Origin: Candidatus Fermentithermobacillaceae bacterium
Lineage (GTDB): Bacteria > Bacillota > Sulfobacillia > Fermentithermobacillales > Fermentithermobacillaceae
DNA: 64,000 nt
Reading direction: 5' to 3'
NCBI GenBank assembly: GCA_012842685.1
Contig: DUSI01000060.1
Location: 5,024 to 69,023 of the forward strand
Shown here: positions 14,021 to 54,360 of the stretch, piece by piece
How the letters are laid out: each line of letters starts with the position of its first letter
Numbering within the stretch: the stretch's first letter is position 1
Notes under the pieces: generated by a model
The model's input: the letters and a program-made list of their open reading frames with translations, nothing else
Told to the model about the DNA's origin: nothing
The model's database searches: none
Position numbers and translations under genes: made by a program

Positions 14021-16207
14021 ATGCCTGTGGGTGTTCCCAGGAGTCTAGGCTTTTTCTACTTACACCCGCTTTACCGCACGTTTCTCGCAGAGCTGGGGGT
14101 GCGGTGGGAAGAGTCTTCCTACACCAGTGAGAGCGACCTTGCGCGGCTGGACCTCTGCCCCACAGACGAGCCTTGCGTCGCCGTGAAAGCGGCATTTGTC
14201 CATGTGGATAACCTGCTCCGGAAAGGGTGCCGGAAGATCTTCATCCCGGCGGTCGTTTCCCTCTCAGAGACTTCTTACTGCTGTCCCAAGATGATGGGCC
14301 TTCCTTCGATGATAAAGGCGGCTTTCGGGCTCTCTGACGAAGACCTCATAAGCCCCGTCATAGACATGCGGGATAACCCGAAGGGCTGGCCGGGTACGTG
14401 GATACGGGCGGCGCGCAAGATGGGCGTCTCTTCTCAGGCCAGGGCCAGCAGGGCTCTCCGTGAGGCGGTCCGGGCCTTGAGGGCGTACGAGGAAGGAGCG
14501 GTCCGCTCACGCGAGAGTTTCTGGGACACGGCCGTCATGGGGCATTCATACATCTTGGACGACATATTCGGCCGCGGGCTCCTTGAGCGGGTATCCGAGT
14601 ACGGTCCGGTGGTGACCGCGGAAAACGTATCGAAAGAGGATGCCGCGGCGGCCCTCCACGGGATCTTTGAGGGGGAGAGACTCTGGACCATCGAGGGCCG
14701 CATCCTGGGAGCCACTTTGCACCTAATCAGGTCCGGAAAAGTGGGCCGCCTGATCTTCGTGTCGGCCTTTTCGTGCGGTCCCGCGTCCATAATCGAGAAC
14801 TACGTCGCGAAGGAAGCCGGCGAGAGGGGCATACCGCTCCTGAGTCTCACCGTCGACGAGCACTCGGGCGAGGCCGGGCTCCTCACGAGGATCGAAGCCT
14901 TCATGGATTCAACCCGGACCCCGGCCCGGCGGGTGAGCAGGGCTGTGGTTCCTGCCGGAGCTAGGGCTGATCGCCGCGGCTGCGGTTCTGGAACCCCCGA
15001 CAAGGAGAGGTGCGCCGTCCCCGGGCCCGGTGGCGCTGGAGGAGACCCGCATGGGAGGACCCTAGCCTTCCCGGACAGGGAGCCCTTCGCCTCAGCGATT
15101 CGCGATGAAGGCCCCATAGGCCTAGTGGACATGGGCCACCTGAGGTACGCTCTGAGGGCCCTTTTCGCCGAGATGGGCTCCGAAGTTGCCATGCCGCCCC
15201 CCCTTACCGAAGACATAGTGCGGCTGGGAAAAGAGATAGCCCCCGAGTTCATCTGCTACCCTATGGTCACCCTCATCGGGCAGATGAGAAAGCATGCCGA
15301 AGACGGCATCCGGAAAATCGTGATGATCCAGGGAAAAGGGAGGTGCCGACTGGGCTGGTACGCTCAGGTCATGGAAGAGATCCTCAGGAAAAACGGCTAT
15401 CCGGTGCGCGTGGTTTCGGTGGATTCTCCCCTCCCCCTCTCGGAGAAATGGGAAAGGTTTGTCGAGTCCTACAGGGATCTCTCGGGAGACGCACATTTCG
15501 TGAGGGGACTCAGGGGTGTAAGGATCGGCCTAGCCAAGATCGCCGCGTGTGACCGGGCCGTGGATCTGCTCCGGGAGGTGAGGGCCTACGAAGCCGAGCG
15601 GGGCGAAGGTGACCAGAGGTTCGACCGGTTCCTCAGGGAGCTTGACGAAGCCCGGAACCCTGCCGAAGTGAAGGCGGTCTTCGCCGGATACCGCCGGGAC
15701 ATGAAGCGGATACCCAGGCTCAGGGTGGATCCCCTCAGGATCGCCATAGTCGGAGAGGTCTACGTGGTGAACGAGCCCTTCGTAAACAAGAGCGCCGAGA
15801 AGATCCTGGGCTCGCTGGAGCAGCGGGTGAGAGTGTACAGGACCCTCGACGTTACGTCGTGGCTCGACTATCACGTGTTTAAGCGGCCCCGCGCCGTGAT
15901 CCAGTATGGCAGGGTGGTAAGTTGCGCCGCGCCCTATTTGCCCCTGAGCGTAGGAGGGCACGGGCAGGAGTCAGTGGGTGAGGCGGTGCTCGCCAAGAGA
16001 CTGGGCATGGACGGCGTCATCCATCTGTTTCCCTTCACATGCATGCCGGAGATAATAGCCCAGAACATACTGGTGAGAGTGTCCAAGGATTTGGATATCC
16101 CTGTTCTTTCCCTCATGATCTCCGAGCAGACGGGGGTGGCGGGCCTTGAGACGCGGTTCGAGGCGTTCTGCGACCTGCTGGAAGGAAGGAGAAAAAGGAG
16201 TCTGTGA
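14021..16207 (+). CDS. 2-hydroxyacyl-CoA dehydratase-like protein (HgdA/HgdB / DUF2229 family; possible double-cubane-cluster-type ATP-dependent reductase component)
   Basis: 728 aa; resemblance to DUF2229 / dehydratase-component proteins that pair with BcrAD/BadFG activases; scattered conserved Cys residues; stop overlaps the start of the activase gene (GTGAGATG). Confidence 0.5.
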   Translation: MPVGVPRSLGFFYLHPLYRTFLAELGVRWEESSYTSESDLARLDLCPTDEPCVAVKAAFVHVDNLLRKGCRKIFIPAVVSLSETSYCCPKMMGLPSMIKAAFGLSDEDLISPVIDMRDNPKGWPGTWIRAARKMGVSSQARASRALREAVRALRAYEEGAVRSRESFWDTAVMGHSYILDDIFGRGLLERVSEYGPVVTAENVSKEDAAAALHGIFEGERLWTIEGRILGATLHLIRSGKVGRLIFVSAFSCGPASIIENYVAKEAGERGIPLLSLTVDEHSGEAGLLTRIEAFMDSTRTPARRVSRAVVPAGARADRRGCGSGTPDKERCAVPGPGGAGGDPHGRTLAFPDREPFASAIRDEGPIGLVDMGHLRYALRALFAEMGSEVAMPPPLTEDIVRLGKEIAPEFICYPMVTLIGQMRKHAEDGIRKIVMIQGKGRCRLGWYAQVMEEILRKNGYPVRVVSVDSPLPLSEKWERFVESYRDLSGDAHFVRGLRGVRIGLAKIAACDRAVDLLREVRAYEAERGEGDQRFDRFLRELDEARNPAEVKAVFAGYRRDMKRIPRLRVDPLRIAIVGEVYVVNEPFVNKSAEKILGSLEQRVRVYRTLDVTSWLDYHVFKRPRAVIQYGRVVSCAAPYLPLSVGGHGQESVGEAVLAKRLGMDGVIHLFPFTCMPEIIAQNILVRVSKDLDIPVLSLMISEQTGVAGLETRFEAFCDLLEGRRKRSL

Positions 16208-24550: not shown

Positions 24551-24576
24551 AGCGCACACAGATGTTTGTGTGCGCT
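24551..24576. promoter_or_regulatory. Perfect 10-bp inverted repeat AGCGCACACA-N6-TGTGTGCGCT; candidate NrdR box upstream of nrdR-nrdJ (alternatively a weak terminator)
   Basis: The core ACACAgATgTtTGTGT matches the NrdR-box half-sites ACACA / TGTGT; located 39 bp upstream of the nrdR start. Confidence 0.4.
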
Positions 24577-24614
24577 TTGGCTGGGTTAGTATCCGCGAAG
24601 GGTGGAGTGGCTCC

Positions 24615-25103
24615 TTGAAGTGCCCGTTTTGTGGTTTTCTCGACTCCCGGGTGTTGGAATCTCGTCCGACGGACGAAGATACCGCCATACGCAGGCGTCG
24701 AGAGTGTCCGCGCTGCGGCCGCCGCTTCACCACCTATGAACGGGTCGACGAAACTCCCCTCGTAGTGATCAAGAAGGACGGAAGTCGAGAGATGTTCTCC
24801 CGGCAGAAAATCTTGTCGGGAATGCTGAGGGCCTGCGAGAAGCGTCCCATACCCCTCGAGACTTTGGAAGATGCGGCGTTTGACATAGAGCGCGCCCTCA
24901 GGGAGTCGGGCAAGGGAGAGGTGACTTCCAAAGAGATCGGCGAGATGGTCATGGCGAAGCTGCGGGCGATCGATGACGTGGCGTACGTCAGGTTTGCGTC
25001 GGTCTACAGGGAGTTCACCGACCTCATGGGTTTTCGCGAGGAACTTGAAAGGATTCTCAGGGAGAAGGAGGGCAGGGAAAAGGCCGAAAACCCTGGCGGC
25101 TAG
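24615..25103 (+). CDS. nrdR: Transcriptional repressor NrdR (zinc ribbon + ATP cone)
   Basis: MKCPFCG...[14 protein letters not shown] zinc ribbon, then an ATP-cone ([17 protein letters not shown]...). Probable TTG start at 24615; the ORF-track ATG at 24570 would add an atypical N-terminal extension. Confidence 0.9.
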
Positions 25104-25197: not shown

Positions 25198-28100
25198 TTG
25201 AACCTTTCTAAAAACGCGATCCAGGTCTTGGAGAAGAGGTACCTGAAAAAAGACGAGACCGGAAAACCTCTTGAGACGCCCGCCGAGATGTTCTGGCGGG
25301 TAGCCAAGAATATCGCCCTTATGGATCTGTTATATTACCCCGAGGTCTATTCCGGTCTCGCCAAGAAGCAGAAGAAAACCACCTTCGTCGCGGGAGCGCC
25401 CGAGAAGCCCGAAACGGCGGGGGAACACGAGTTCTCTCTTTCGGAATGGGACTGGGCGACCCTGAAAATGGCCTTTAGCCGTCTTGAGTCTAAGGGCCTT
25501 GCGAAGATTTCGTGGGACGATTTCAGGGAGCTGGTGGATGCGAGGAAGGACGAGATCCGCGATCTTGCGGTGAGATTCTACGAAGTGATGACCGACGTGA
25601 AATTCCTTCCCAACTCTCCTGCCCTGATCAACGCAGGGCGAGAGCTCCAGCAGCTGTCCGCTTGCTTCGTCCTGCCCATTGACGATTCGATGGTGAGCAT
25701 CTTTGATTCTTTGAAGCACGCCGCGCTCATCCACCAATCAGGCGGCGGTACTGGGTTCAGCTTCAGCCGCCTGAGGCCCAAGAACGACGTGGTGAGGTCC
25801 ACCGGCGGAGTCGCGTCGGGACCCGTTTCGTTCATGAAGGTGTTCAACGCCGCGACAGAAGCGGTTAAGCAGGGCGGAGTGAGGCGCGGCGCCAACATGG
25901 GGATCCTGCGGGTGGATCACCCGGATATCCTCGAGTTCATCACCTGCAAGACCGACAACAGCGAGCTCACCAACTTCAACATCTCGGTAGGGGTCACCGA
26001 GAAGTTTATGGAAGCCGTCAAGAAAGGCGAAGAGTACGAGCTGGTGAACCCCAGAAACGGCCAGGTGACGGGGAAGCTTAATGCCCGCGAGGTCTTCGAG
26101 AAAATCGTGGACCAGGCCTGGAGGAACGGCGAGCCGGGCATCATATTCCTCGACCGTTTGAACAGGGACAATCCCACTCCTGAAATCGGCCAGATAGAGA
26201 GCACCAACCCTTGCGTTGCGGGCGACGCCCTTGTCTCCACCGAGATGGGCCTGATCCCCATCAGGGAAATGGCGGAGAAATGGCCTGACGGTGGGATCAA
26301 GGTAACCATCGACTGGCGTGTCTTGGGTGAAAGGCTCCGGGAAGGAACGTCGGGGACCTTCGTGGAGACGGCTACCGGAGTAGGCGTCGTGCCCCTGGCA
26401 AGAGCTTTCCGGACGGCCGTCAAGGAGGTCATCCGGGTCAGGACCAGGAGCGGGTACTCGGTAGAGGTTACGCCCGATCATAAGATCATGACAACTCGTG
26501 GGTGGGTGCCTGCCGCCGAGCTCAAACCAGGAGTGGATTCGGTCCTTATCCAATCCGGCGCGGGCCGGTTCAGCTGCGACTCGTCCCTCCCTGCGGGGGC
26601 CCAAAACGCAAGGACCGGCGCCAACGGCCGTACATACCGGAAAAACTTCCCCACAACTTGGTCCAGAGAGCTAGGTATCATCTTGGGCTGGCTCGTCGGC
26701 GACGGCTGGCTTAGAGACTCTGGGAAGAACTGCCGCGTCGGTTTCACCTTCTCCGGACAAGATCTCGGCGTGATGGAGATGGTGAAGTCTGCCCTTGACA
26801 GGTGGTATGGCCCCGTAAAGCCGGTTATGCGGAAGAATGGCGTCTATCATCTCCGCTACCACTCCAAGTCGGTGGTAGAGTTCTTCCGGAGCCTTGGGGT
26901 TCAGCCAGTGAAAGCCGCCTTCAAGAGAGTGCCTGAGACCATATTCAGGGCTACCCGCGAAGCGGTAGTGGGTTTCCTCCAGGGGTTGTTCACTGCCGAT
27001 GGAACGCTGGCGACATCGCCGAACGGTACGGCCTACTTGAGGCTTACGTCCAAATCAAGGCTCCTCCTGGAGGATGTGCAGGTCCTCCTCCTGAGCCTCG
27101 GGATTATGTCGACCATCTATGACAGGTCGAGGCCTGCCAGGGAGTGTTTCTCCAACAAGACTGCCGGAGGCTCCGAAAGAGCGTATGTGAGCGACGGCGT
27201 GCTCTACGAGCTCCAGGTGTCCAAGGAAGACCTGGGACTCTTCATAGATGAAGTGGGCTTTGCCGACGACCGCTTTGCCGGGAAGATTGGAGAACTGAAG
27301 AGACGGTCGAGAGGGTTCTACCGCCGTCATTACGTGGATGTTGTCGAAGCCTTGGAACCCGTTGGCGAAAAGGAAGTCTTCGACCTGACTGTACCCATCA
27401 GCCACTCTTTCATAGCTAACGGGATTGTGGTATCCAACTGCGGAGAACAGCCTCTCTTGCCCTACGAGGCTTGCTGCCTGGGTTCCGTGAACCTGGGCGC
27501 GTTCACGAAGCCCGTCTGGGGCATGGAGAACCCGCCTAAGGACGTCACGGAGCTTGTGGACTGGGACGGGCTCAGGAAAACCGTCCGGGCGGGAGTGCAT
27601 TTCCTGGACAACCTGATAGATGCCAACAAGTACCCGCTGCCCCAGATAGACGATATGGCCCACGGGAACAGGAAGATCGGCCTTGGGGTGATGGGCTGGG
27701 CCGATATGCTCATCGACCTCGGCATACCCTACTGCTCCGAGGAAGCCCTCCAGCTCGCTGAAAGGGTCATGTCTTTCATCGAGGAAGAGTCCGTGAAGGC
27801 TTCTATGGAGCTGGCGGAGAGCCGGGGCGTATTCCCCAACTACGAAAAGAGCGTCTTCGTGGCCAAGAACAAGCCCGTTAGGAACGCCACTACCACCACC
27901 ATCGCCCCGACAGGCACCATCAGCATCATCGCGGGCGCGTCCTCGGGCATAGAGCCTCTCTTCAGCATTGCCTTCACCAGGCACGTGCTGGATAAGAAGG
28001 CCCTCGTGGAAGTGAACCCGAGGTTCGAAAGGGTGGCCCGGGCCCTCGGCTTCTTCAGCGACGCCCTCATGGAGAGGATAGCGGAGCACGGCACGCTCAA

Positions 28101-28959
28101 GGGCATCCAGGGCATACCCGATGAGGTGCGTAAGGTCTTCGTCACCGCCCACGACATAACGCCCGAGTGGCACATAAGGATGCAGGCCGCGTTCCAGAAG
28201 TACACTCACAACGCGGTATCCAAGACCGTGAACTTCCCCAACGAAGCCACCCGCGAGGACGTCAAAGAAGTGTTCATCCTGGCCAACAAGCTCGGCTGCA
28301 AGGGCGTGACCGTCTACCGGGACGGGAGCCGGAGCGAACAGGTGCTTACGGTCGGAGCCGACAAAAAGGCGAAGGCCGCGGACGAGGGGCTGGGAGCGTC
28401 AGGGGAACTCCCGGGAGGCCACGAAGGGAAGGCCAAGGCAAAGGTCAACGGGGTCTGGGGTCACGTAAAACCCATCGAGCGGCCGGTGCGTCTGGACGGT
28501 TTCACGGCCGCCAAAGAGACTCCTGTGGGCAAGCTGTTCCTCACCCTGAATACCCTGGAAGGTCACCCGGTGGAGCTGTTTGCCCAGATCGGGAAGGCAG
28601 GAAGCGACGTGGCGGCCTTCACAGAGGCGATCGCCAGGCTCATCTCGATCGCCTTGAGGTCGGGCGTGGATCCCCAGGAGATCGCGGACCAGCTTGTGGG
28701 TATCGGCGGGTCCCGCGCCATAGGTTTCGGCCCCAACAGGGTCCGTTCGGTGCCGGATGCCATAGGGCAGTTCCTGGATGAGTACCTCAGGGGAGAGTCG
28801 GAGAAGGAAGACGAAGAGGAAGACTTCGGTCCTGTCCAGGATGCGCTACCCTTGGTTCCGGGTAAGAAATTCGGCCTGTGTCCCCAGTGCGGTACCTGGA
28901 ACCTGATCCACGTTGAAGGGTGCGCGAAGTGTCTGGCTTGCGGACATAGTGAATGTTAG
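25198..28959 (+). CDS. nrdJ: Class II (adenosylcobalamin-dependent) ribonucleotide reductase, interrupted by a 409-aa intein
   Basis: RNR blocks (SACFVLP, GGGTGFSFSRLRP, ESTNP|CGEQPL) and a C-terminal Cys-rich zinc ribbon (CPQCGTWNLIHVEGCAKCLACGHSEC). The extein total is ~844 aa. Confidence 0.9.
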   Translation: MNLSKNAIQVLEKRYLKKDETGKPLETPAEMFWRVAKNIALMDLLYYPEVYSGLAKKQKKTTFVAGAPEKPETAGEHEFSLSEWDWATLKMAFSRLESKGLAKISWDDFRELVDARKDEIRDLAVRFYEVMTDVKFLPNSPALINAGRELQQLSACFVLPIDDSMVSIFDSLKHAALIHQSGGGTGFSFSRLRPKNDVVRSTGGVASGPVSFMKVFNAATEAVKQGGVRRGANMGILRVDHPDILEFITCKTDNSELTNFNISVGVTEKFMEAVKKGEEYELVNPRNGQVTGKLNAREVFEKIVDQAWRNGEPGIIFLDRLNRDNPTPEIGQIESTNPCVAGDALVSTEMGLIPIREMAEKWPDGGIKVTIDWRVLGERLREGTSGTFVETATGVGVVPLARAFRTAVKEVIRVRTRSGYSVEVTPDHKIMTTRGWVPAAELKPGVDSVLIQSGAGRFSCDSSLPAGAQNARTGANGRTYRKNFPTTWSRELGIILGWLVGDGWLRDSGKNCRVGFTFSGQDLGVMEMVKSALDRWYGPVKPVMRKNGVYHLRYHSKSVVEFFRSLGVQPVKAAFKRVPETIFRATREAVVGFLQGLFTADGTLATSPNGTAYLRLTSKSRLLLEDVQVLLLSLGIMSTIYDRSRPARECFSNKTAGGSERAYVSDGVLYELQVSKEDLGLFIDEVGFADDRFAGKIGELKRRSRGFYRRHYVDVVEALEPVGEKEVFDLTVPISHSFIANGIVVSNCGEQPLLPYEACCLGSVNLGAFTKPVWGMENPPKDVTELVDWDGLRKTVRAGVHFLDNLIDANKYPLPQIDDMAHGNRKIGLGVMGWADMLIDLGIPYCSEEALQLAERVMSFIEEESVKASMELAESRGVFPNYEKSVFVAKNKPVRNATTTTIAPTGTISIIAGASSGIEPLFSIAFTRHVLDKKALVEVNPRFERVARALGFFSDALMERIAEHGTLKGIQGIPDEVRKVFVTAHDITPEWHIRMQAAFQKYTHNAVSKTVNFPNEATREDVKEVFILANKLGCKGVTVYRDGSRSEQVLTVGADKKAKAADEGLGASGELPGGHEGKAKAKVNGVWGHVKPIERPVRLDGFTAAKETPVGKLFLTLNTLEGHPVELFAQIGKAGSDVAAFTEAIARLISIALRSGVDPQEIADQLVGIGGSRAIGFGPNRVRSVPDAIGQFLDEYLRGESEKEDEEEDFGPVQDALPLVPGKKFGLCPQCGTWNLIHVEGCAKCLACGHSEC
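26212..27438 (+). mobile_element. Intein with LAGLIDADG homing-endonuclease domain, inserted at the catalytic Cys of the NPCGE motif of nrdJ
   Basis: Block A C-VAGDALV (Cys1); block B TPDHKIMT; LAGLIDADG blocks ILGWLVGDGW and GFLQGLFTADGTL; C-terminal block VFDLTVPISHSFIANGIVVSN, followed by the extein +1 Cys (CGEQPLLPY). Confidence 0.85.
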
Positions 28960-37558: not shown

Positions 37559-39175
37559 CTACCTCCAAAGCCTGCGGAGGAAGTCAGAGGTCCAGCTAAG
37601 GGGCCCTTTCTGCCCTTTTCCCGGCTGGCCGCTGTTTGACCCGCCGGCCTTTGGGTCTGCTCCCTTGGGTCCCGGCTGCTTTTCGTCTTTGCCCTTGGAG
37701 TCTTTGGGGTCTCTTGCGCCTGGCTTATCGTCCTTGCCCTTGGAGTCCTTTCCTGGCTTCTCGTCCTTATCCTTCTTGTCGCCCTTGTCTCCTCGATCGT
37801 CTTCGTGTGGCTTGACGGGTTTATCAGGGCTCTTGCCTGGGTCTTGCTTCCCGCCCTTTGGAGTGGAAGGAGAACCTGAGCCGGTGGGGGTGAGGCCCGA
37901 CTGAGTATTGCCCTTCTTGTCGTCTTCCTTTTTGTTGGGGCCCTTCTCGCTTTCTTTCTTGTTGTCTTTCTCGACGTGGTCATCCCGGCGATCTCTATCG
38001 TCCCGTTTCTCCATATCGTTCTGGTCGCCGGTGGACTTCGATGCCTCGAGCAGGGCTTTGAGCAAGTCTTTCGCAAGATTCTCCAGTTCTTTCTGGGACT
38101 TTTTCGTACCGAGCTTTGGGTCTCCCCAGTTGATCTCGGGTAGGCCGCTCCTAATCATGTCCAGGAACGTCTGGACATCGGCCTTCTTCTGGAGGCCGGG
38201 CGGGACGGGGCTTCCCTTGCCGGGAGTGGTTGGCGGAGCTCCCTGGGCAGCATGCGGAGTCGCCTTGCCCGACGCGCCTTTTTCTTCCCCCGTTGACCGC
38301 GGATTGACCTCGTTCGCACCCGGAGAGGGAGCGCCCGAGGGCCCTGCGGTTTCCCCTTCTCCGGCGGGCGAGCTCCCAGGCAACTCGTCTACCTGGGCTT
38401 CCAGGTGGAGAGGTTCGGCCAAGGGAGTAGATCCGCCGGGCTCGGCTTGCCCGGAGGTCGTGCCGCCGGCCACGTAAATCCCGGGATCCGCTCCCGGTTC
38501 CATCCAAGGTTCTTCGTAGCTTTCCCATTCAAGATTCCAGAGGGCCCATAGGGCCGCCCGTCCTGCCGACACGCCCAGCTCCTGGGCCATAGCCCTGGTT
38601 TCCATATCCAGCACGAGCGCGGTGGCCTCGCCGACGGAACCGAAGATCTCATGGGCGATGGCAGATACCTCGGCGGAAACGTCTCTATCCCCTCGGGTGC
38701 CCTCCGGCACCGGGATGATGGCGATTATGACCTGCTTGACGCCTGGCACCGCGTCCCTCAGGCTGCTCAGGACGGCGCTTATGGCCTTCATCTCCACTCT
38801 TACCGCCGAGAGGGCTGCCGCCCCTGCCTCATCGAGCGCCACCGCCTTCCTCACCAGGCCGCGGTCGTTTACCTCGAGCTCTATGCTTGCGGCGGTGTCT
38901 CCCGACGAGTCGAAGGTCACATAGGCGAGTACCGGCCTCGCGTAGAGGTAGTGCCGGTAGCCGAAGATGGACGACACGATCAAGATGGAGGCCAATATGG
39001 CAGCAGGCACGAGCTTCCGCCAGAGGAAGCCCTGGAAACGGGGGGTGGGCACCCAGACCTCTTCACCCGGCATGAGGTCGCGCCTATCCCGCCAGGTCAC
39101 GAACTCACCGTCCGCGGTAAGGGCGGTTACCCTATCGCCGGAGCGTTCTATCACCAGGGCACGTCTTCTGTACAA
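37559..39175 (-). CDS. rsgI: Anti-sigma-I factor RsgI-like (RsgI_N domain, one TM, extracytoplasmic domain with K/D/G/P-rich disordered tail)
   Basis: N-terminal MYRRRALVIERSGDRVTALTADGEFVTWRD...PGEEVWVP matches the RsgI N-domain; TM AAILASILIVSSIFGY; directly downstream of the sigI-like gene. Confidence 0.7.
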   Translation of the reverse strand: MYRRRALVIERSGDRVTALTADGEFVTWRDRRDLMPGEEVWVPTPRFQGFLWRKLVPAAILASILIVSSIFGYRHYLYARPVLAYVTFDSSGDTAASIELEVNDRGLVRKAVALDEAGAAALSAVRVEMKAISAVLSSLRDAVPGVKQVIIAIIPVPEGTRGDRDVSAEVSAIAHEIFGSVGEATALVLDMETRAMAQELGVSAGRAALWALWNLEWESYEEPWMEPGADPGIYVAGGTTSGQAEPGGSTPLAEPLHLEAQVDELPGSSPAGEGETAGPSGAPSPGANEVNPRSTGEEKGASGKATPHAAQGAPPTTPGKGSPVPPGLQKKADVQTFLDMIRSGLPEINWGDPKLGTKKSQKELENLAKDLLKALLEASKSTGDQNDMEKRDDRDRRDDHVEKDNKKESEKGPNKKEDDKKGNTQSGLTPTGSGSPSTPKGGKQDPGKSPDKPVKPHEDDRGDKGDKKDKDEKPGKDSKGKDDKPGARDPKDSKGKDEKQPGPKGADPKAGGSNSGQPGKGQKGPLSWTSDFLRRLWR

Positions 39176-44317: not shown

Positions 44318-46873
44318 TCACCGGGTGTAATACCGTCTGACCAAAGAGGTGAGCCGGTAGTACACCACCCCTTCGGTAAGGGGATACACTCCTCCGTATG
44401 ACGTGTCAAAATATACCGCCCTCAGCCTGTGGTCCAGGGTGGCCATCCCTGCAGATCTCGCCGAGTACTTCAGCGAGCCGGTGAAGTCCGCCGTGTTCCA
44501 CCAGATGACCGTAACGGTGTAGCCGGCCGGGAGGACCAGGGAAGTCTCGCCGCCCAAGTCATCCGGCGAGCACCCGAGCAAGGTGTCCAAGCCGTGGAGC
44601 GTGAAACCCTGCGCGGTTATCCGTGGCCCCACTGACTCTGATATCTGTAGCGACACTGCGTCTGCGCTCCTTGCGAGCTCGAAGTGGGCGAGTATTTCTC
44701 CAGGCCGTAACCCTTCCTGGGCTTCCGGCTCTTCACTTGAGAATACGCCCCGGGTGATGTCGGCCCAGTCGAAGATATCTCCACCCTCCACGGGCAAGCT
44801 TCTTATGCCCGAGAGGTTCCTGTAGCTCTTGGATTCGCCTGTGACCTCGTCTACCAGAGCTAGCTCGCGGACCGGTATTGGGGCGCTCAGGACAAACGAA
44901 GGCTCAACGTCGTAGGTCTCCTCCACCACTGCCCACGCGCGAGGACCGGCATCCTGTTGGGCGGAGAGGAGGAAGCCGGCGGCCGGGGTGAGGGCCAGTG
45001 AAAGTACCTCGAAGAGCGAGATCAAGCGGAAGAACCTCTGGGGGACCGGGCGCGGCGCCCTGAAAGTCGAGAGAACCGACGCTGCCGTGGCTCCCAGGCA
45101 GAGGGCCGAGACCATGGAACCCCGGTTAAGTCCCGTCCAGGAGGCCCGGTAGGCTGCCTGGGCGATCGGGTCTAGGGGGCTCCCAGCCCAGAACACAGCC
45201 AGGAGAGGCACCAGGTAGAGGACCCTGGCCAGCCACAAAACGACCGCATGCGGGGGCATATCTTCCGGTGACGCTTTCAAGAGTAGCGTGGCGATCCCGT
45301 GGGATATCCCCGCTGCCACGAGAGGCGGGAGCATCTCCGGATCCTTGTAGGCGGTCCCCGCGATGAGGGCGGAGAGGACCGCCAGGCTCCACGGAGAACC
45401 CCACGACTTCTTTTCTCCGGCGCCCTGCTCACTCATACCGGAACGCTGGCGCAGGTGGTGGATCCTGGACCTTACGTTCCAGAGCCTGAGGAAAGCGCAC
45501 AGCACGAGGAGGGCGAAAACCACGAAGAAGAGGAGCAGAGAACGGCCGGGGAATACGTCTGACGCATATCTCTGAGCAGCCCTCGTCGTGAAAAGGACGT
45601 GCAGGAGCATGGATGCCGCCGCGGCGGCGCAAGTGCCAAGCGTGAGGAGGATGCCCGATGCCTCTTTCGGCAGCCGCGCGAACGCTATCACCGCTAGGAG
45701 CGCCGCCGCAGTAAAGCCCCACATGAAGACCTTTTCCGGGGGCAGGAAGAAAACCCTACCCCAGAATAAGAGGCGGCGCGTTTCGCCAAGCTTGGGACCC
45801 CCGGTCCCAGGGGCTTTGCCGAGAGCCGTGGCCACCGCGTCTGCCGCCCTCTCCACCTTGATACCGAGGTCATCCCTGAGGAGGTCCTGATTCAGCTTGT
45901 GCCCCAGGTCGCCGTACAGGAGACCTACTGTCACCAAGGGCCTCTCTAGGTCGCCGAGCAAGAAGCCCTCAACCTGCAGGCCGCGACCCAAGGGGGAAGA
46001 TGGGGACACAGTGCCGCTCAGCGGTGTCTGGGTATTCCGGAGATTTTCCGGGAAATGCGCACCGAGCCCCATCGATCTCGCCTCTTCAAACAGGGTTTCC
46101 AGGAACGATACGGGCGCAGCAGGGCTGCCGCCCACGTCGAGGCCGCTTGAGGTCAGGATATCTCCCAGGATTAAGAAGGTTCCGACAGTTATGCCTTCCT
46201 CTTCGAGGAACTCACAGAGCGCGAGGATACCCGCCATGCCCTGGTAGTGGCCTGAGACGAAGGCCACTCCTGCCTCCAGGCTCTCCCGGTCGAGCTTCTG
46301 GGAAACCCTGAGCGCCAGGGCCGTCGAAACGAGTGTGGGCGAGGAGGCGAGTATGTCTTCAGGGTTATCTGAAAACAGGTTGTCGTACGGCGCGACTATC
46401 AAGTAGTCAAGGTTTTTCGCCCCGTCGGATTCAAGGGCAAGAAGGTTTTCACCAGTAACCCGCAGGTAAACAACGCTCTTTTCCTGCTCGGACACCGTCT
46501 TTACCACATTTGTATAAGGGAGGATCTTGGTGTGCCATCCATTGAGTTGGAGTGTGCCCGCGAGATGCGAGAGGAATAATCTCGCCTCGTAGGACCCCGT
46601 CTTCCGCAATGGGTGGCGGCTTGATATTTCAGATAGAAGGTCTGGGATCTCCATCCCCGAAGCGGCGTCCGCTGCCGCGGCCGTCAGGTCCTCTAAGGCT
46701 TGCCCTGCGCCGGGGGCTATCGCGCCCGATAGACCTACCGCGCCGGGGGTTTCGGAAGCGTGGGCTTTCGGAGCGTGAGAAGTAGCTACGAAGGGCCAAA
46801 GGCTCAAGAAGGTAAAGGTTGCTGCTACCAGTAAGGCGGCGATGCGCGATGGCTTCAACATGAAAAAGACCAC
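44318..46873 (-). CDS. Large hypothetical membrane protein (signal peptide, N-terminal extracytoplasmic domain, ~8 TM core, C-terminal extracytoplasmic domain)
   Basis: Signal peptide (MVFFMLKPSRIAALLVAATFTFLSLWPFVATSHA), then a hydrophilic domain; multiple hydrophobic helices at aa ~380-620; hydrophilic C-terminus; no confident family assignment. Confidence 0.5.
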   Translation of the reverse strand: MVFFMLKPSRIAALLVAATFTFLSLWPFVATSHAPKAHASETPGAVGLSGAIAPGAGQALEDLTAAAADAASGMEIPDLLSEISSRHPLRKTGSYEARLFLSHLAGTLQLNGWHTKILPYTNVVKTVSEQEKSVVYLRVTGENLLALESDGAKNLDYLIVAPYDNLFSDNPEDILASSPTLVSTALALRVSQKLDRESLEAGVAFVSGHYQGMAGILALCEFLEEEGITVGTFLILGDILTSSGLDVGGSPAAPVSFLETLFEEARSMGLGAHFPENLRNTQTPLSGTVSPSSPLGRGLQVEGFLLGDLERPLVTVGLLYGDLGHKLNQDLLRDDLGIKVERAADAVATALGKAPGTGGPKLGETRRLLFWGRVFFLPPEKVFMWGFTAAALLAVIAFARLPKEASGILLTLGTCAAAAASMLLHVLFTTRAAQRYASDVFPGRSLLLFFVVFALLVLCAFLRLWNVRSRIHHLRQRSGMSEQGAGEKKSWGSPWSLAVLSALIAGTAYKDPEMLPPLVAAGISHGIATLLLKASPEDMPPHAVVLWLARVLYLVPLLAVFWAGSPLDPIAQAAYRASWTGLNRGSMVSALCLGATAASVLSTFRAPRPVPQRFFRLISLFEVLSLALTPAAGFLLSAQQDAGPRAWAVVEETYDVEPSFVLSAPIPVRELALVDEVTGESKSYRNLSGIRSLPVEGGDIFDWADITRGVFSSEEPEAQEGLRPGEILAHFELARSADAVSLQISESVGPRITAQGFTLHGLDTLLGCSPDDLGGETSLVLPAGYTVTVIWWNTADFTGSLKYSARSAGMATLDHRLRAVYFDTSYGGVYPLTEGVVYYRLTSLVRRYYTR

Positions 46874-51165: not shown

Positions 51166-54100
51166 ATGGATTTCACACACTTACACGTCCATACAGAATA
51201 TAGCCTATTGGATGGCGCTTGCAGGATAAGTGAAGCTCCCAGGCTCGCGAAGAGCATGGGGATGGACGCGCTGGCCATGACGGACCACGGCGCGATGTAT
51301 GGAGCGGTAGCGTTCTATGAGTCTTGCAAGGCGGCCGGCGTGAAACCGGTCTTCGGCTGCGAGGTGTACGTGGCTCGGAGATCCCGCCACGACAAGACGG
51401 CGGGCCTGAGCGATAAGCCCTACCACCTTGTCCTCCTCGCGGAAAACCAGACCGGATACCTGAACCTGATGCGCCTCGTCTCCACCGGTTTTCTCGAGGG
51501 GTTCTACTATAGGCCGCGGGTGGACCTTGAGACCCTCGCCCGTTACTCGGAGGGCCTCATAGCCCTTACCGCCTGTCTGGAAGGAGAGCTGTCGGTAAAG
51601 ATCATGGAAGGGAACATCCAGGCGGCCGGCGAAGCCCTGGGGCGATACCTGGATATCTTCGGTAGGAACAACCTGTTCATAGAGCTCCAGAGGAACGGCG
51701 TGCCCGGGCAGGACGATGTGAACGCCGCTCTCATAGAGCTTTCCAAGAGGTTTGGCGTCCCTCTGGTCGCGACCAACGACTGCCACTACCTCACCAGGGA
51801 AGACGCCGGCCCCCACGAAGTCCTCTTGGCCATACAGACGGGCACAAACCTCAATGACCCAAAGAGGCTTTCCTTTACCGGAGACCAGTTCTACCTGAAA
51901 TCTCCGCTCGAGATGGCGGCGCTTTTCCATGATCTCCCAGAGGCGGTGGCAAACACGGGCGCCATCGCGCGCCGCTGCAATGTCGAGCTGGACATCGGAA
52001 AAGTCCACCTTCCCGAGTATCCGCTAAAGCCTGGAGAAACCGCGAGCGAGGTCCTGAGGCAAAAGGCCTATGAGGGCTTCCGGCGCAGGTTTGGAGAGAG
52101 AAATGACACCGTACGCGTGGAAAGGCTTGAGCGGGAGCTCAGGATGATAGACAACATGGGCTATTCGTCCTACTTCCTCATCGTCGAAGACTTCGTTTCT
52201 TACGCCAAGAAACAGGGGATAGCCGTGGGTCCGGGGAGGGGGTCGGCGGCGGGGAGCCTGGTTGCCTACTGCCTCGGGATCACAAACACGGATCCCATCG
52301 AATACGACCTGGTGTTCGAGAGGTTCCTAAATCCCGAGCGCGTCACCATGCCGGATATAGACATAGACTTCCAGGATGACAGGCGCGACGAGGTTATCGA
52401 GTACGTCAGGCGCAAGTACGGCGAAGACAGGGTGGCCCAGATAATCACGTTCGGTACCATGGCCGCGCGGGCCGTGGTGAGGGACGTGGGACGGGCCCTT
52501 TCCATCCCTTACGCCGAGGTCGACCGGATCGCCAAGATGATCCCGGCCCAGCCGGGGATGACCCTAAAGAAGGCCATGGAGCTTTCGCCGGAGCTCAGCG
52601 CTGCTTCTCAGAACAGGGAAGTGCGCAGGCTACTGGATGTCGCTGCCAAACTTGAGGGGATGCCGCGGCACCCGTCCATCCACGCGGCGGGGATAGTCAT
52701 AGGTAAAGGCCCCCTTTGGGACTACGTGCCTCTCGCGAGGACCCAAGACGGAGTCGTGGTGACCCAGTTCCCGATGGAAGACCTCGAAACGCTGGGGCTG
52801 CTCAAGATGGACTTCCTCGCCCTCAGGACCCTCACGGTCATCCAGAGGGCGGTGAAGCTGGCCGAACACGACACCGGCGATCGGGTTGATATAGACGCCA
52901 TCCCGCTTGACGATGGGCCCACTTATGATCTCTTGAGCAGGGGAGAGTCCATGGGTGTGTTCCAGCTTGAATCAGGCTGGGTGAGGGACTTCCTAAAGGA
53001 ACTCAAACCGGGGCGACTCGAAGACATAATCGCGGCCATAGCCCTTTGCCGGCCGGGGCCGATGCAGCAGATACCGGAGTACTTAAGGGCCAGGAGGGGG
53101 ACCCCCCACTACCTCCACCCGCTCCTGGAGCCCGTCCTCAAGGAGACCTACGGGGTGCTCGTGTACCAGGAGCAGATCCTCAGGCTCGTGAACGTCGTGG
53201 CGGGGTTTACCCTCGGGGAAGCCGACATCTTGAGGCGGGCGGTCGGGAAGAAGAAGCTGGACCTCCTGCTCGAATCGGAAAAAAGGTTCATAGGCGGAGC
53301 GGTTGCAAACGGAGTCCCCGAGGATATCGCCCGAGAGATTTTTGACCTGATACTAAAATTCGCAAACTATGGGTTCAGCAAGAACCACGCGGCCCCTTAC
53401 GCGCTCATCGCCTATCAGACGGCGTACCTCAAGGCCAATTATCCCAAGCAGTTCATGGCGGCCCTCCTCTCGTCGGTGGCAGGCATCCACAACAAGGTTG
53501 GCATCTACCTGGAAGAAGCGCGGAGACTTGGCCTCGGAGTCCTGGGTCCAAGCGTCAACAGGAGCAGGGTCGAGTTCTCGGTGGAAGGAGAGGCCATAAG
53601 GTATGGCCTGGGGGGCATCAAGAACGTGGGAGAAGCCCTGGCCCACGCCATCGTAGAGGAGCGGCAGGCTAGAGGCGAATACGCGTCCCTCGAAGACCTG
53701 GTGGCGAGGCTAGACTCTAGGCTCCTGCACAAGAAGGCCCTCGAGAGCCTCATACGCTGTGGCGCCCTCGACGAGCTCGGGACCAGGTTTGAGAACCTAT
53801 CGAGGCTCCCCGAAGTCCTGGAATCAAGGCCTAAAGGGACCCAGGGCCAGCCTTCCTTGTTCGGTTTCGAGCCGCTCCCCGGCCCTGCGCCGTCCAAGCC
53901 AGGCGCGAAAAAGGCTCCGGCCGAAGAGAAAGTGTCCCTGGAAGTCCGGCTGAGCTGGGAGAGGGAGCTCCTGGGCATGTACCTGAGCGGCCATCCTCTG
54001 GCCAAATACGCGGATTTCCTCAAGAAGCACGCGACGCCCATAGCGGAACTCGAATCCAGCCACGACGGGAGCGATGTCTCCATCGGAGGACGCATATCCA

Positions 54101-54360
54101 CGATAAAGAGGGTCATCACCAAAGCAGGCGACGAGATGGCCTTCATAACGGTAGAAGACGACTTTGATTCCATCGAAGTGATCGTTTTCCCCAAACTCTT
54201 CGCGAGGGCGAAGGAGATAGTTACCAAGGATAGTGTGGTTTTGGTGCGGGGAAGGCTGGAGGAGCAAGAGGAAACGCGTCGAATACTGGCAAGGGACTTG
54301 GCGCCGGTTCAGAAGCTCATGGAATCCGGCGAGTCTAGGGGGAAACAATACAGCCGATAG
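51166..54360 (+). CDS. dnaE: DNA polymerase III alpha subunit (DnaE type)
   Basis: N-terminal PHP domain FTHLHVHTEYSLLDGA; polymerase core motifs (GPGRGSAAGSLVAYCLGIT, PDIDIDF); C-terminal OB-fold region. Confidence 0.95.
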   Translation: MDFTHLHVHTEYSLLDGACRISEAPRLAKSMGMDALAMTDHGAMYGAVAFYESCKAAGVKPVFGCEVYVARRSRHDKTAGLSDKPYHLVLLAENQTGYLNLMRLVSTGFLEGFYYRPRVDLETLARYSEGLIALTACLEGELSVKIMEGNIQAAGEALGRYLDIFGRNNLFIELQRNGVPGQDDVNAALIELSKRFGVPLVATNDCHYLTREDAGPHEVLLAIQTGTNLNDPKRLSFTGDQFYLKSPLEMAALFHDLPEAVANTGAIARRCNVELDIGKVHLPEYPLKPGETASEVLRQKAYEGFRRRFGERNDTVRVERLERELRMIDNMGYSSYFLIVEDFVSYAKKQGIAVGPGRGSAAGSLVAYCLGITNTDPIEYDLVFERFLNPERVTMPDIDIDFQDDRRDEVIEYVRRKYGEDRVAQIITFGTMAARAVVRDVGRALSIPYAEVDRIAKMIPAQPGMTLKKAMELSPELSAASQNREVRRLLDVAAKLEGMPRHPSIHAAGIVIGKGPLWDYVPLARTQDGVVVTQFPMEDLETLGLLKMDFLALRTLTVIQRAVKLAEHDTGDRVDIDAIPLDDGPTYDLLSRGESMGVFQLESGWVRDFLKELKPGRLEDIIAAIALCRPGPMQQIPEYLRARRGTPHYLHPLLEPVLKETYGVLVYQEQILRLVNVVAGFTLGEADILRRAVGKKKLDLLLESEKRFIGGAVANGVPEDIAREIFDLILKFANYGFSKNHAAPYALIAYQTAYLKANYPKQFMAALLSSVAGIHNKVGIYLEEARRLGLGVLGPSVNRSRVEFSVEGEAIRYGLGGIKNVGEALAHAIVEERQARGEYASLEDLVARLDSRLLHKKALESLIRCGALDELGTRFENLSRLPEVLESRPKGTQGQPSLFGFEPLPGPAPSKPGAKKAPAEEKVSLEVRLSWERELLGMYLSGHPLAKYADFLKKHATPIAELESSHDGSDVSIGGRISTIKRVITKAGDEMAFITVEDDFDSIEVIVFPKLFARAKEIVTKDSVVLVRGRLEEQEETRRILARDLAPVQKLMESGESRGKQYSR

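Follow-up and report, generated by a model that had tools for sequence, protein, structure and literature searches.

A predicted full-size LAGLIDADG intein directly before the thiyl-radical cysteine of the class II ribonucleotide reductase NrdJ from a Candidatus Fermentithermobacillaceae bacterium

The gene nrdJ of a Candidatus Fermentithermobacillaceae bacterium, encoding a ribonucleotide reductase (RNR), is located in a 64,000-nucleotide stretch of contig DUSI01000060.1, the whole of which is referred to here as the window. The deduced protein contains a 409-residue insert that is very probably a canonical class 1 intein with a two-motif LAGLIDADG homing endonuclease, an element that would splice itself out from directly before the thiyl-radical Cys and whose endonuclease would serve homing. 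It adds one ordinary member to a familiar class of inteins, at the RNR intein site that is known best, and the site itself is not new.

The nrdJ open reading frame (ORF) extends from position 25198 to position 28959 of the + strand, is open over 3762 nt and encodes 1253 aa from a TTG start, with a Shine-Dalgarno-like hexamer, GGGAGG, located 9 nt 5' of the TTG. Translation reproduced both the 1253-aa product and the insert at residues 339-747, nt 26212-27438, that had been given in a preliminary description of the sequence. A string search found NPCVAGD at NrdJ residue 337 and VVSN/CGEQ at 744-751, which sets the boundaries of the insert at 339-747 (here and below the slash marks a splice junction or insertion point). 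Removal of the insert yields ...EIGQIESTNP/CGEQPLLPYEACCLG, i.e. IESTNP/CGEQPLLPY, so that excision restores the RNR motif as had been claimed, and the restored sequence is identical to that of empty-site orthologues. The block A, the TPDH block B, the two LAGLIDADG motifs and the terminal VVSN followed by Cys were all located. The predicted elements of the gene are as follows, with the evidence for the larger parts in parentheses.

25198..26211, + strand: N-extein of NrdJ, aa 1-338, ending in ...IESTNP with Pro as the -1 residue (Ribonuc_red_lgN, Ribonuc_red_lgC, alignment with 1XJE)
26212..27438, + strand: intein, 409 aa, NrdJ residues 339-747 (translation, Pfam, PDB sequence and structure matches, same-site homologues)
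26212..26565, + strand: N-terminal splicing (HINT) half, intein residues 1-118 (alignment of full-size with mini-inteins; the boundary is approximate and was placed where the mini-inteins of relatives end)
26212-26214, + strand: codon of Cys1 in block A (CVAGDALV, intein residues 1-8)
26470-26481, + strand: block B TPDH, intein residues 87-90
26566..27330, + strand: LAGLIDADG homing-endonuclease domain, intein residues ~119-373 (Pfam, model, Foldseek, mini-intein deletions)
26683-26709, + strand: LAGLIDADG motif 1, LGWLVGDGW, intein residues 158-166, with Asp164
26974-27009, + strand: LAGLIDADG motif 2, FLQGLFTADGTL (FLQGLFTADGT, with Asp263), intein residues 255-266
27331..27438, + strand: C-terminal splicing half, intein residues ~374-409 (alignments)
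27376-27411, + strand: block F, VFDLTVPISHSF (VFDLTV...SHSF, residues 389-400, with Asp391 and His398)
27427-27438, + strand: block G VVSN, residues 406-409 (Ser408, Asn409), followed by Cys
27439..27441, + strand: TGC codon of the +1 Cys, C-extein nucleophile for splicing and thiyl-radical Cys of the mature enzyme (aligns with C322 of T. maritima NrdJ)
27439..28959, + strand: C-extein of NrdJ, aa 748-1253, and the stop codon (ORF, Pfam), containing the rest of the barrel, a Lys/Ala/Gly-rich linker, the TSCPD domain and a Cys-rich C-terminal tail

The product of the ORF is, as judged from its sequence, the class II (B12-dependent) ribonucleotide reductase NrdJ. A Pfam scan of the whole protein returned Ribonuc_red_lgN, Ribonuc_red_lgC (E = 2e-132, in two stretches flanking the insert) and TSCPD. 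The spliced 844-aa extein aligned with the NrdJ of T. maritima (1XJE; E = 1e-115), the alignment covering N320, C322, E324 and C333. The best PDB match of the extein is a B12-dependent enzyme, close relatives are named 'vitamin B12-dependent ribonucleotide reductase' in the sources, and no nrdB-like gene adjoins nrdJ.

The position of the insert within the enzyme was deduced from the same alignment, in which the NPCGE of the spliced extein corresponds to N320-P321-C322-G323-E324 of T. maritima NrdJ and the next conserved Cys to C333. The Asn-x-Cys-x-Glu loop of RNRs bears the thiyl-radical Cys, which is C322 in T. maritima NrdJ, C408 in the L. leichmannii enzyme and C439 in E. coli NrdA. Since Cys+1 aligns with C322, the known radical Cys of the family, it is predicted to serve both as nucleophile in splicing and, later, as radical site, in agreement with the earlier assignment of the insertion to the catalytic NPCGE Cys of a class II RNR. 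Since the active-site finger loop of the 1253-aa precursor is split, with 409 residues between Asn-Pro and Cys-Gly-Glu, the precursor can safely be expected to be inactive until spliced. The position directly N-terminal to the thiyl-radical Cys is the most frequent RNR intein site and was described in 2009 by Dassa et al. (PMC2677866). Novikova et al. counted 211 bacterial and 43 archaeal RNR inteins, RNR being the second most frequent bacterial host (PMC4760082).

Several lines of evidence identify the insert. Within it, Pfam Intein_splicing scored 45.6 bits against a cut-off of 35.8 and LAGLIDADG_3 scored 70.8 bits against a cut-off of 22.5. A phmmer search of the insert against the PDB returned only inteins, with the VMA inteins of Thermococcus/Pyrococcus (E = 7e-15) followed by DnaB, RadA, RecA (PI-MtuI), PI-PkoII and PI-PfuI. 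An AlphaFold2 model built from a 15-sequence alignment of allelic inteins had a mean pLDDT of 88.3 and a pTM of 0.89, residues 41-52 forming the sole disordered stretch. When the model was compared with the PDB by Foldseek, TliVMA (7QSU, E = 4e-22) ranked first, followed by PhoVMA, PI-PkoII, PI-PfuI and PI-SceI, next by free LAGLIDADG enzymes of the I-DmoI type and then by mini-inteins. Based on the Pfam matches, the PDB sequence matches, the AlphaFold2 model and the Foldseek ranking, the segment is predicted to be a bipartite intein in which a HINT splicing domain is interrupted by a two-motif LAGLIDADG endonuclease; these methods agree with the full-size LAGLIDADG intein originally proposed.

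The residues expected to participate in splicing are conserved among the 15 aligned inteins. Cys1, Thr87, His90 and Asn409 are invariant, Asp391 and His398 are each present in 14 of the 15, and Cys+1 is present in all alleles. A class 3 intein was considered and ruled out on the presence of Cys1 and of Asp391, not Cys, at the block F position. That the intein splices, and how efficiently, we infer from its sequence.

The positions of Asp164 and Asp263 are always occupied by Asp or Glu in the aligned inteins, and both Asp residues are intact in the window copy. Asp164 and Asp263 terminate helices 152-164 and 249-263 of the model, whose secondary structure contains the pseudo-symmetric alpha-beta-beta-alpha-beta-beta-alpha core. 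Foldseek matched I-DmoI with a TM-score on the target of 0.63-0.73, and PI-PfuI and PI-SceI were matched as well. The region deleted in mini-inteins is exactly the endonuclease domain. The balance tips slightly towards an endonuclease that is still active, and this activity is the weakest part of the mechanism proposed below.

The penultimate residue of the intein is Ser408, and the His usual in block G is not found. The preliminary description had remarked on this Ser as unusual; the observation stands, and the emphasis on it does not, the residue being conserved in the lineage and having precedents among DnaE inteins. Of the 15 aligned inteins, 12 have Ser408, as have all 30 full-size and mini alleles of the lineage among close relatives, and a Ser-Asn end is also found in L004-L007, down to 38% identity. 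In the wider family at the NP/CGEQ site the last two residues are SN, HN, RN, AN, HQ, RQ or AQ. In cyanobacterial DnaE inteins the penultimate residue is Ser or Ala (PMC5874633), and the Npu DnaE C-intein sequence in PDB 4LX3_B ends in ...NGFIASN. Splicing without the penultimate His has been studied in its own right (Chen, Benner & Perler 2000 and Sun et al. 2005, both cited in PMC4031507). The penultimate His is thus common among inteins and not obligatory. A degenerative mutation was ruled out as the origin of Ser408 on its fixation in all 30 close alleles and in distant relatives and on the precedent in fast-splicing inteins. Ser408 is a conserved trait of the intein lineage, not a defect, and is of small significance.

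The following mechanism is proposed. Translation would yield the inactive 1253-aa precursor, in which an N-S acyl shift at Cys1, aided by Thr87 and His90 of block B, would constitute the first step. The resulting thioester would be attacked by Cys+1 in a transesterification, after which cyclisation of Asn409 would free the intein, with Asp391 and His398 of block F helping in place of the penultimate His. An S-N shift would then re-form the native NPCGE peptide, the products being the 844-aa NrdJ and the free 409-aa intein. The LAGLIDADG domain of the free intein (Asp164, Asp263) is expected to cut intein-less nrdJ across ...GAGAGCACCAACCCT/TGCGGAGAACAGCC..., and repair of the cut allele would copy the intein in, a process known as homing.

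The distribution of the intein was investigated by an extein search, in which all counts refer to the 120 best extein relatives, mostly uncultured Bacillota. The preliminary description had suggested that close relatives be checked for empty sites and mini-inteins, and both were found among them. An intein of 409-410 aa belonging to the window lineage is present in 14 of the relatives, and 14 others contain a mini-intein of the same lineage with 150-178 aa, in which residues ~1-120 and ~372-409 are kept. Three have inteins of another lineage, with a His-Asn end, at the same site, and the remainder have an uninterrupted STNPCGEQ. A neighbour-joining tree built from the exteins shows the full, mini and empty states intermixed. 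Closely related host genes differ in state: P0066 is empty and P0067 full at an extein identity of 96.8%, P0083 is empty and P0098 full at 93.6%, and P0082 is full and P0084 mini at 99.9%, the splicing halves of the last two inteins being identical. The sporadic pattern is as expected of a homing cycle of gain, endonuclease decay and loss.

The gene order of the window, namely OsmC, FlK-type thioesterase, NrdR and NrdJ, recurs at two loci with an empty site, L013 and L014, whose exteins are 83.6% and 80.3% identical to that of the window; L013 also shares DUF6754. The DNA of L013 and L014 across the insertion point has only synonymous differences from the reconstructed window site, the empty-site target sequence of L013 being ...GAGATCGAGAGCACAAATCCG/TGCGGAGAGCAGCCGCTC....

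A scan of a genome collection located the nearest inteins, at 77% identity, in three metagenome-assembled genomes (MAGs) of Candidatus Fermentithermobacillaceae (L001-L003). More distant copies, at 35-58% identity, come from MAGs labelled Aneurinibacillus, Chitinophagales, uncultured bacterium and Actinomycetes; each of them occupies the same site and has the Ser-Asn end. A search with the intein alone returned inteins of ~50% identity in class II RNRs labelled Omnitrophica, Thermoplasmatota, Poribacteria, NC10, CPR, Chisholmbacteria, Uhrbacteria, Nanoarchaeota, Actinobacteria, Gemmatimonadaceae and Chloroflexi, with the same NP/CGEQ site wherever the fragment includes the junctions. The protein P0061, from the Logan assemblies SRR29782976 and SRR29782973, is nearly identical to the window protein, with two substitutions in the intein and 99.8% identity in the exteins.

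Inteins of other kinds were also encountered. P0121, P0143 and P0178 contain a second, unrelated-looking lineage with a His-Asn end and 162-389 aa, located at NP/CGEQ in other Bacillota NrdJ proteins. In P0153 (1262 aa) and P0179 (1212 aa) the thiyl-radical site is empty, NPCGE lies ~320-370 residues further in than in the other relatives and Pfam Intein_splicing is matched. Since NPCGE is shifted and the splicing profile matched despite the empty thiyl-radical site, nrdJ of these two seems to be interrupted by an intein elsewhere, upstream of that site.

Selection was estimated by the method of Nei and Gojobori from comparisons of the window with L001-L003, in which dS values above 1 come near saturation, and the ratios are consequently rough. 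The dN/dS values obtained were as follows.

Exteins: 0.03-0.07
Splicing halves: 0.04-0.22 (N-terminal half 0.09-0.22)
Endonuclease domain: 0.11-0.31

Since these values are well below 1 in the exteins, the splicing halves and the endonuclease, purifying selection acts on all parts, most weakly on the endonuclease. The inteins of L002 and L003 differ at 26% of four-fold degenerate sites versus 57% for the host genes (Fisher p = 1.7e-12), and those of L001 and L003 by 32% versus 51% (p = 5e-6). Codon bias would push the opposite way, the extein GC3 being above that of the intein. The lower divergence of the inteins than of their hosts at these sites argues that inteins moved among the L001-L003 lineages after divergence of the host genes. 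Composition gave no mark of foreign DNA in the window intein, the GC content being 0.587 versus 0.595 and GC3 0.72 versus 0.79 for the host gene.

A number of observations weigh against a splicing and still homing intein in the window. The catalytic Asp is lost in several close relatives, with FTAGGT (D to G) in P0064 and P0065 and LIGHGW (D to H) in P0098, and the endonuclease domain is wholly deleted in many others. The penultimate His, usual helper of Asn cyclisation, is missing, and Pro(-1) was reportedly found by Evans and colleagues in 1999, working on Mth RIR1, to be unfavourable for the first splicing step in foreign contexts. Near-saturated dS makes the dN/dS values between window and relatives rough. 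The four-fold divergence of the window intein is 47-52% versus 54-59% for the host, significant in only one of three comparisons, and this intein may have been resident about as long as its lineage has been separate. Its GC3 has also drifted towards that of the host. The decayed and deleted endonucleases of relatives, the host-like synonymous divergence and this drift suggest a long vertical residence of the window intein.

The same observations are drawn upon by a reading in which the intein splices with an endonuclease dead or dying, the element being a vertically inherited passenger that would be kept only since any imprecise deletion at the thiyl-radical codon would kill the enzyme. This reading is a serious possibility that falls somewhat short of probable. 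It is consistent with the replaced catalytic Asp residues, with the many independent deletions of the endonuclease domain, with a four-fold divergence similar to that of the host gene in two of the three comparisons, and with an intein GC3 that varies with that of the host gene, from 0.34 to 0.86 in the hosts compared, a further sign of long residence. Two more full-size inteins from close relatives depart from the motifs, P0063 with LGRLVGDGW and P0073 with Glu in place of Asp in both, and the motif sequences suggest that endonuclease decay is in progress in some of the relatives' lineages. The window copy keeps both catalytic Asp residues, however, and its endonuclease has a dN/dS of 0.11-0.31 rather than ~1. 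The clear signs of intein transfer among the nearest MAG genomes and the near-identical host genes with and without the intein (96.8%) also speak against a dead or dying endonuclease.

The suggestion that the intein has come to work as a conditional switch, perhaps through a Cys1-Cys+1 disulphide that would delay splicing so that the RNR is active only under reducing conditions, is unlikely. Both Cys residues are present and invariant, redox traps have been documented for other inteins (in references cited by PMC5874633, and for the DnaB intein in PMC6195587), and mini-inteins unable to home are retained in many relatives. Against this, retention of mini-inteins is explained equally well if imprecise excision at this codon is lethal, and empty alleles are common in sister lineages, showing that the intein is dispensable.

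It is very improbable that nrdJ is a pseudogene or an assembly artefact, that is, a broken and unused gene in a cell relying on another RNR. Only 64 kb are visible and a second RNR, such as the class III NrdDG, could be encoded elsewhere in the genome, which is the point in favour. The reading frame is intact over its 3762 nt, the near-identical P0061 was obtained from two independent sequencing runs, the extein dN/dS is 0.03-0.07 and nrdR is kept directly upstream, all of which argue against loss of function. The most improbable reading, with next to no likelihood, takes the 409-aa segment for an inserted RNR domain that is specific to the lineage and kept in the mature enzyme, the missing penultimate His being the sole weak point it could exploit. 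The segment scores above the cut-offs of intein and LAGLIDADG profiles, its fold matches solved inteins, it parts N320/P321 from C322/E324 of the catalytic loop, and the 150-178-aa versions in relatives are reduced to the splicing halves. The site is uninterrupted in syntenic orthologues of 80-97% identity, contrary to what a lineage-conserved RNR domain lacking intein blocks, named beforehand as the outcome that would overturn the intein assignment, would lead one to expect. These syntenic orthologues with an empty site, together with the intein fold, ruled out the insertion domain.

The predicted intein matters for annotation, in that gene callers and domain tables would otherwise give a 1253-aa 'RNR/LAGLIDADG' fusion; several database relatives are named only 'LAGLIDADG family homing endonuclease'. 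The finding on its own matters little. Within a single family-level group of Bacillota, the relatives form a natural series that is unusually complete, from full inteins through full inteins with a mutated endonuclease and mini-inteins to empty sites. The series includes pairs with 97-99.9% identical host genes and could serve studies of the homing cycle. For protein engineers who need inteins tolerant of a proline junction, the conserved Pro(-1)/Ser-Asn type may be of interest. The invariable Pro(-1) and radical Cys(+1) flanks and the retention of mini-inteins long after endonuclease loss prompt the speculation, in our estimation a distinctly improbable one, that the Ser-Asn lineage at the thiyl site is a domesticated post-translational switch in which splicing, and with it dNTP synthesis, would be gated by redox (Cys1-Cys+1 disulphide) or another condition in these anaerobic Bacillota; the intein would then be more than a selfish element. 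The sequence data speak neither for nor against a switch reading of the Pro(-1)/Ser-Asn lineage.

Additional features were observed in nrdJ. The Cys-rich tail, CPQCG-x9-CAKCLACGHSEC, is located at 28879-28956 after the TSCPD domain and presumably resembles the C-terminal zinc-finger tail of many class II RNRs. The low-complexity Lys/Ala/Gly-rich linker (GADKKAKAADEG...KAKAKVNG) is encoded at 28354-28452, N-terminal to the TSCPD region. The N-terminal all-alpha domain was matched over residues 2-150, yet only to profile positions 2-76 of 77 (75 positions), which implies a putative insertion of ~75 aa in this domain (YYPEVYSGLAKKQKK...RKDEIRDLAVR, NrdJ aa ~46-126, window 25333-25575). Two antisense ORFs lie within nrdJ, at 25738-26604 (- strand, 288 aa) and at 27055-28209 (- strand, 384 aa); they were set aside as genes, being most likely a by-product of the high GC3 of the sense frame (0.72-0.79).

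The gene directly upstream is as follows.

24570..25103, + strand: nrdR, encoding a zinc-ribbon and ATP-cone repressor of RNR genes (ORF)

The nrdR orthologues in L011-L014 encode 161-167 aa with Pfam Zn_ribbon_NrdR and ATP-cone domains. The true start of nrdR is probably the TTG at 24615, giving a product that begins MKCPFCG.... A perfect 9-bp inverted repeat, GCGCACACA-N6-TGTGTGCGC, is present at 24552-24575, ~40 nt 5' of the likely nrdR start, and could be an operator, its arms being NrdR-box-like (ACAC...GTGT), or a hairpin. A scan of the window for NrdR boxes with a presumed consensus gave 3 matches versus 1.3 expected, which is not above chance.

In the remainder of the 64-kb window no further inteins were detected by tblastn, for which the complete intein and each of its three parts served as queries. 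DnaE (DNA polymerase III alpha, 1064 aa), a frequent intein host, is encoded uninterrupted at 51166-54360. An Rfam scan of the window returned nothing at the gathering score. ARAGORN reported a tRNA-His(GTG) at 14916-14989, within a 728-aa ORF at 14021-16207 (DUF2229/HGD-D, CoA-enzyme-activase-like); since Rfam reports no tRNA there, the call is probably a false positive. The ORFs at 44318-46873 (- strand, 851 aa) and 37559-39175 (- strand, 538 aa) had no Pfam match at E <= 1e-5.

The window intein was compared with known systems. The solved endonuclease inteins of archaeal type, TliVMA (7QSU/7QSS), PhoVMA (7QST), PI-PkoII (2CW7) and PI-PfuI (1DQ3), and PI-SceI have the same HINT horseshoe and pseudo-dimeric LAGLIDADG core. 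They differ in that their hosts are V-ATPase and DNA polymerase and in a sequence identity of 15-21%, and the window intein, as judged by length only, is without a large extra DNA-recognition domain of the PI-SceI/PI-PfuI kind. The Npu and Ssp DnaE split inteins are class 1 inteins that, like the window intein, have Cys1 and Cys+1 without a penultimate His, and they splice efficiently; unlike it, they are naturally split, without an endonuclease, and reside in another host protein and site.

A closer relation in host and site is the full-size LAGLIDADG intein in bnrdE of phage SPbeta (SPBc2, NC_001884), which occupies the homologous site of a class Ib RNR (KFSNL/C...GN/CSEV). It too is without a penultimate His, ending in Gly-Asn, and its full-length alignment with the window intein gives 26% identity (E = 6e-15). 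It is distant and differs in that its host is the class Ib NrdE of a prophage, not a chromosomal class II NrdJ, and in having Leu rather than Pro at -1. A phage source of the window intein was considered and set aside: the best phage matches, among them SPbeta bnrdE and a DNA polymerase intein of a Bacillus phage, are ~26% identical and provide no vector evidence.

The Mth RIR1 mini-intein of M. thermautotrophicus (NEB pTWIN2) presumably interrupts a class II RNR between a native Pro(-1) and Cys(+1), and may thus occupy the same site. The sequence used for it, of unconfirmed provenance, has 134 aa and a His-Asn end, would belong to the allele family of P0121 and P0178 and is ~27% identical to the window intein. 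As a lead only, this sequence is 54% identical to the P0178 intein (E = 6e-26), which lies at NP/CGEQ in a Bacillota NrdJ, and in local BLAST it is 45-54% identical to P0178 and P0121 over the N-terminal half. A database search with this sequence gave no match, and no PDB entry for Mth RIR1 was found.

Overall, the window intein is closest in kind to the RIR1 inteins in the large subunits of class I and class II RNRs (InBase; PMC2677866), which share the NP/CGE insertion point, Cys1 and Cys+1 and the enzyme family. There is no difference in kind between them; the window sub-lineage always ends in Ser-Asn, while other alleles end in HN, RN, AN, HQ, RQ or AQ.

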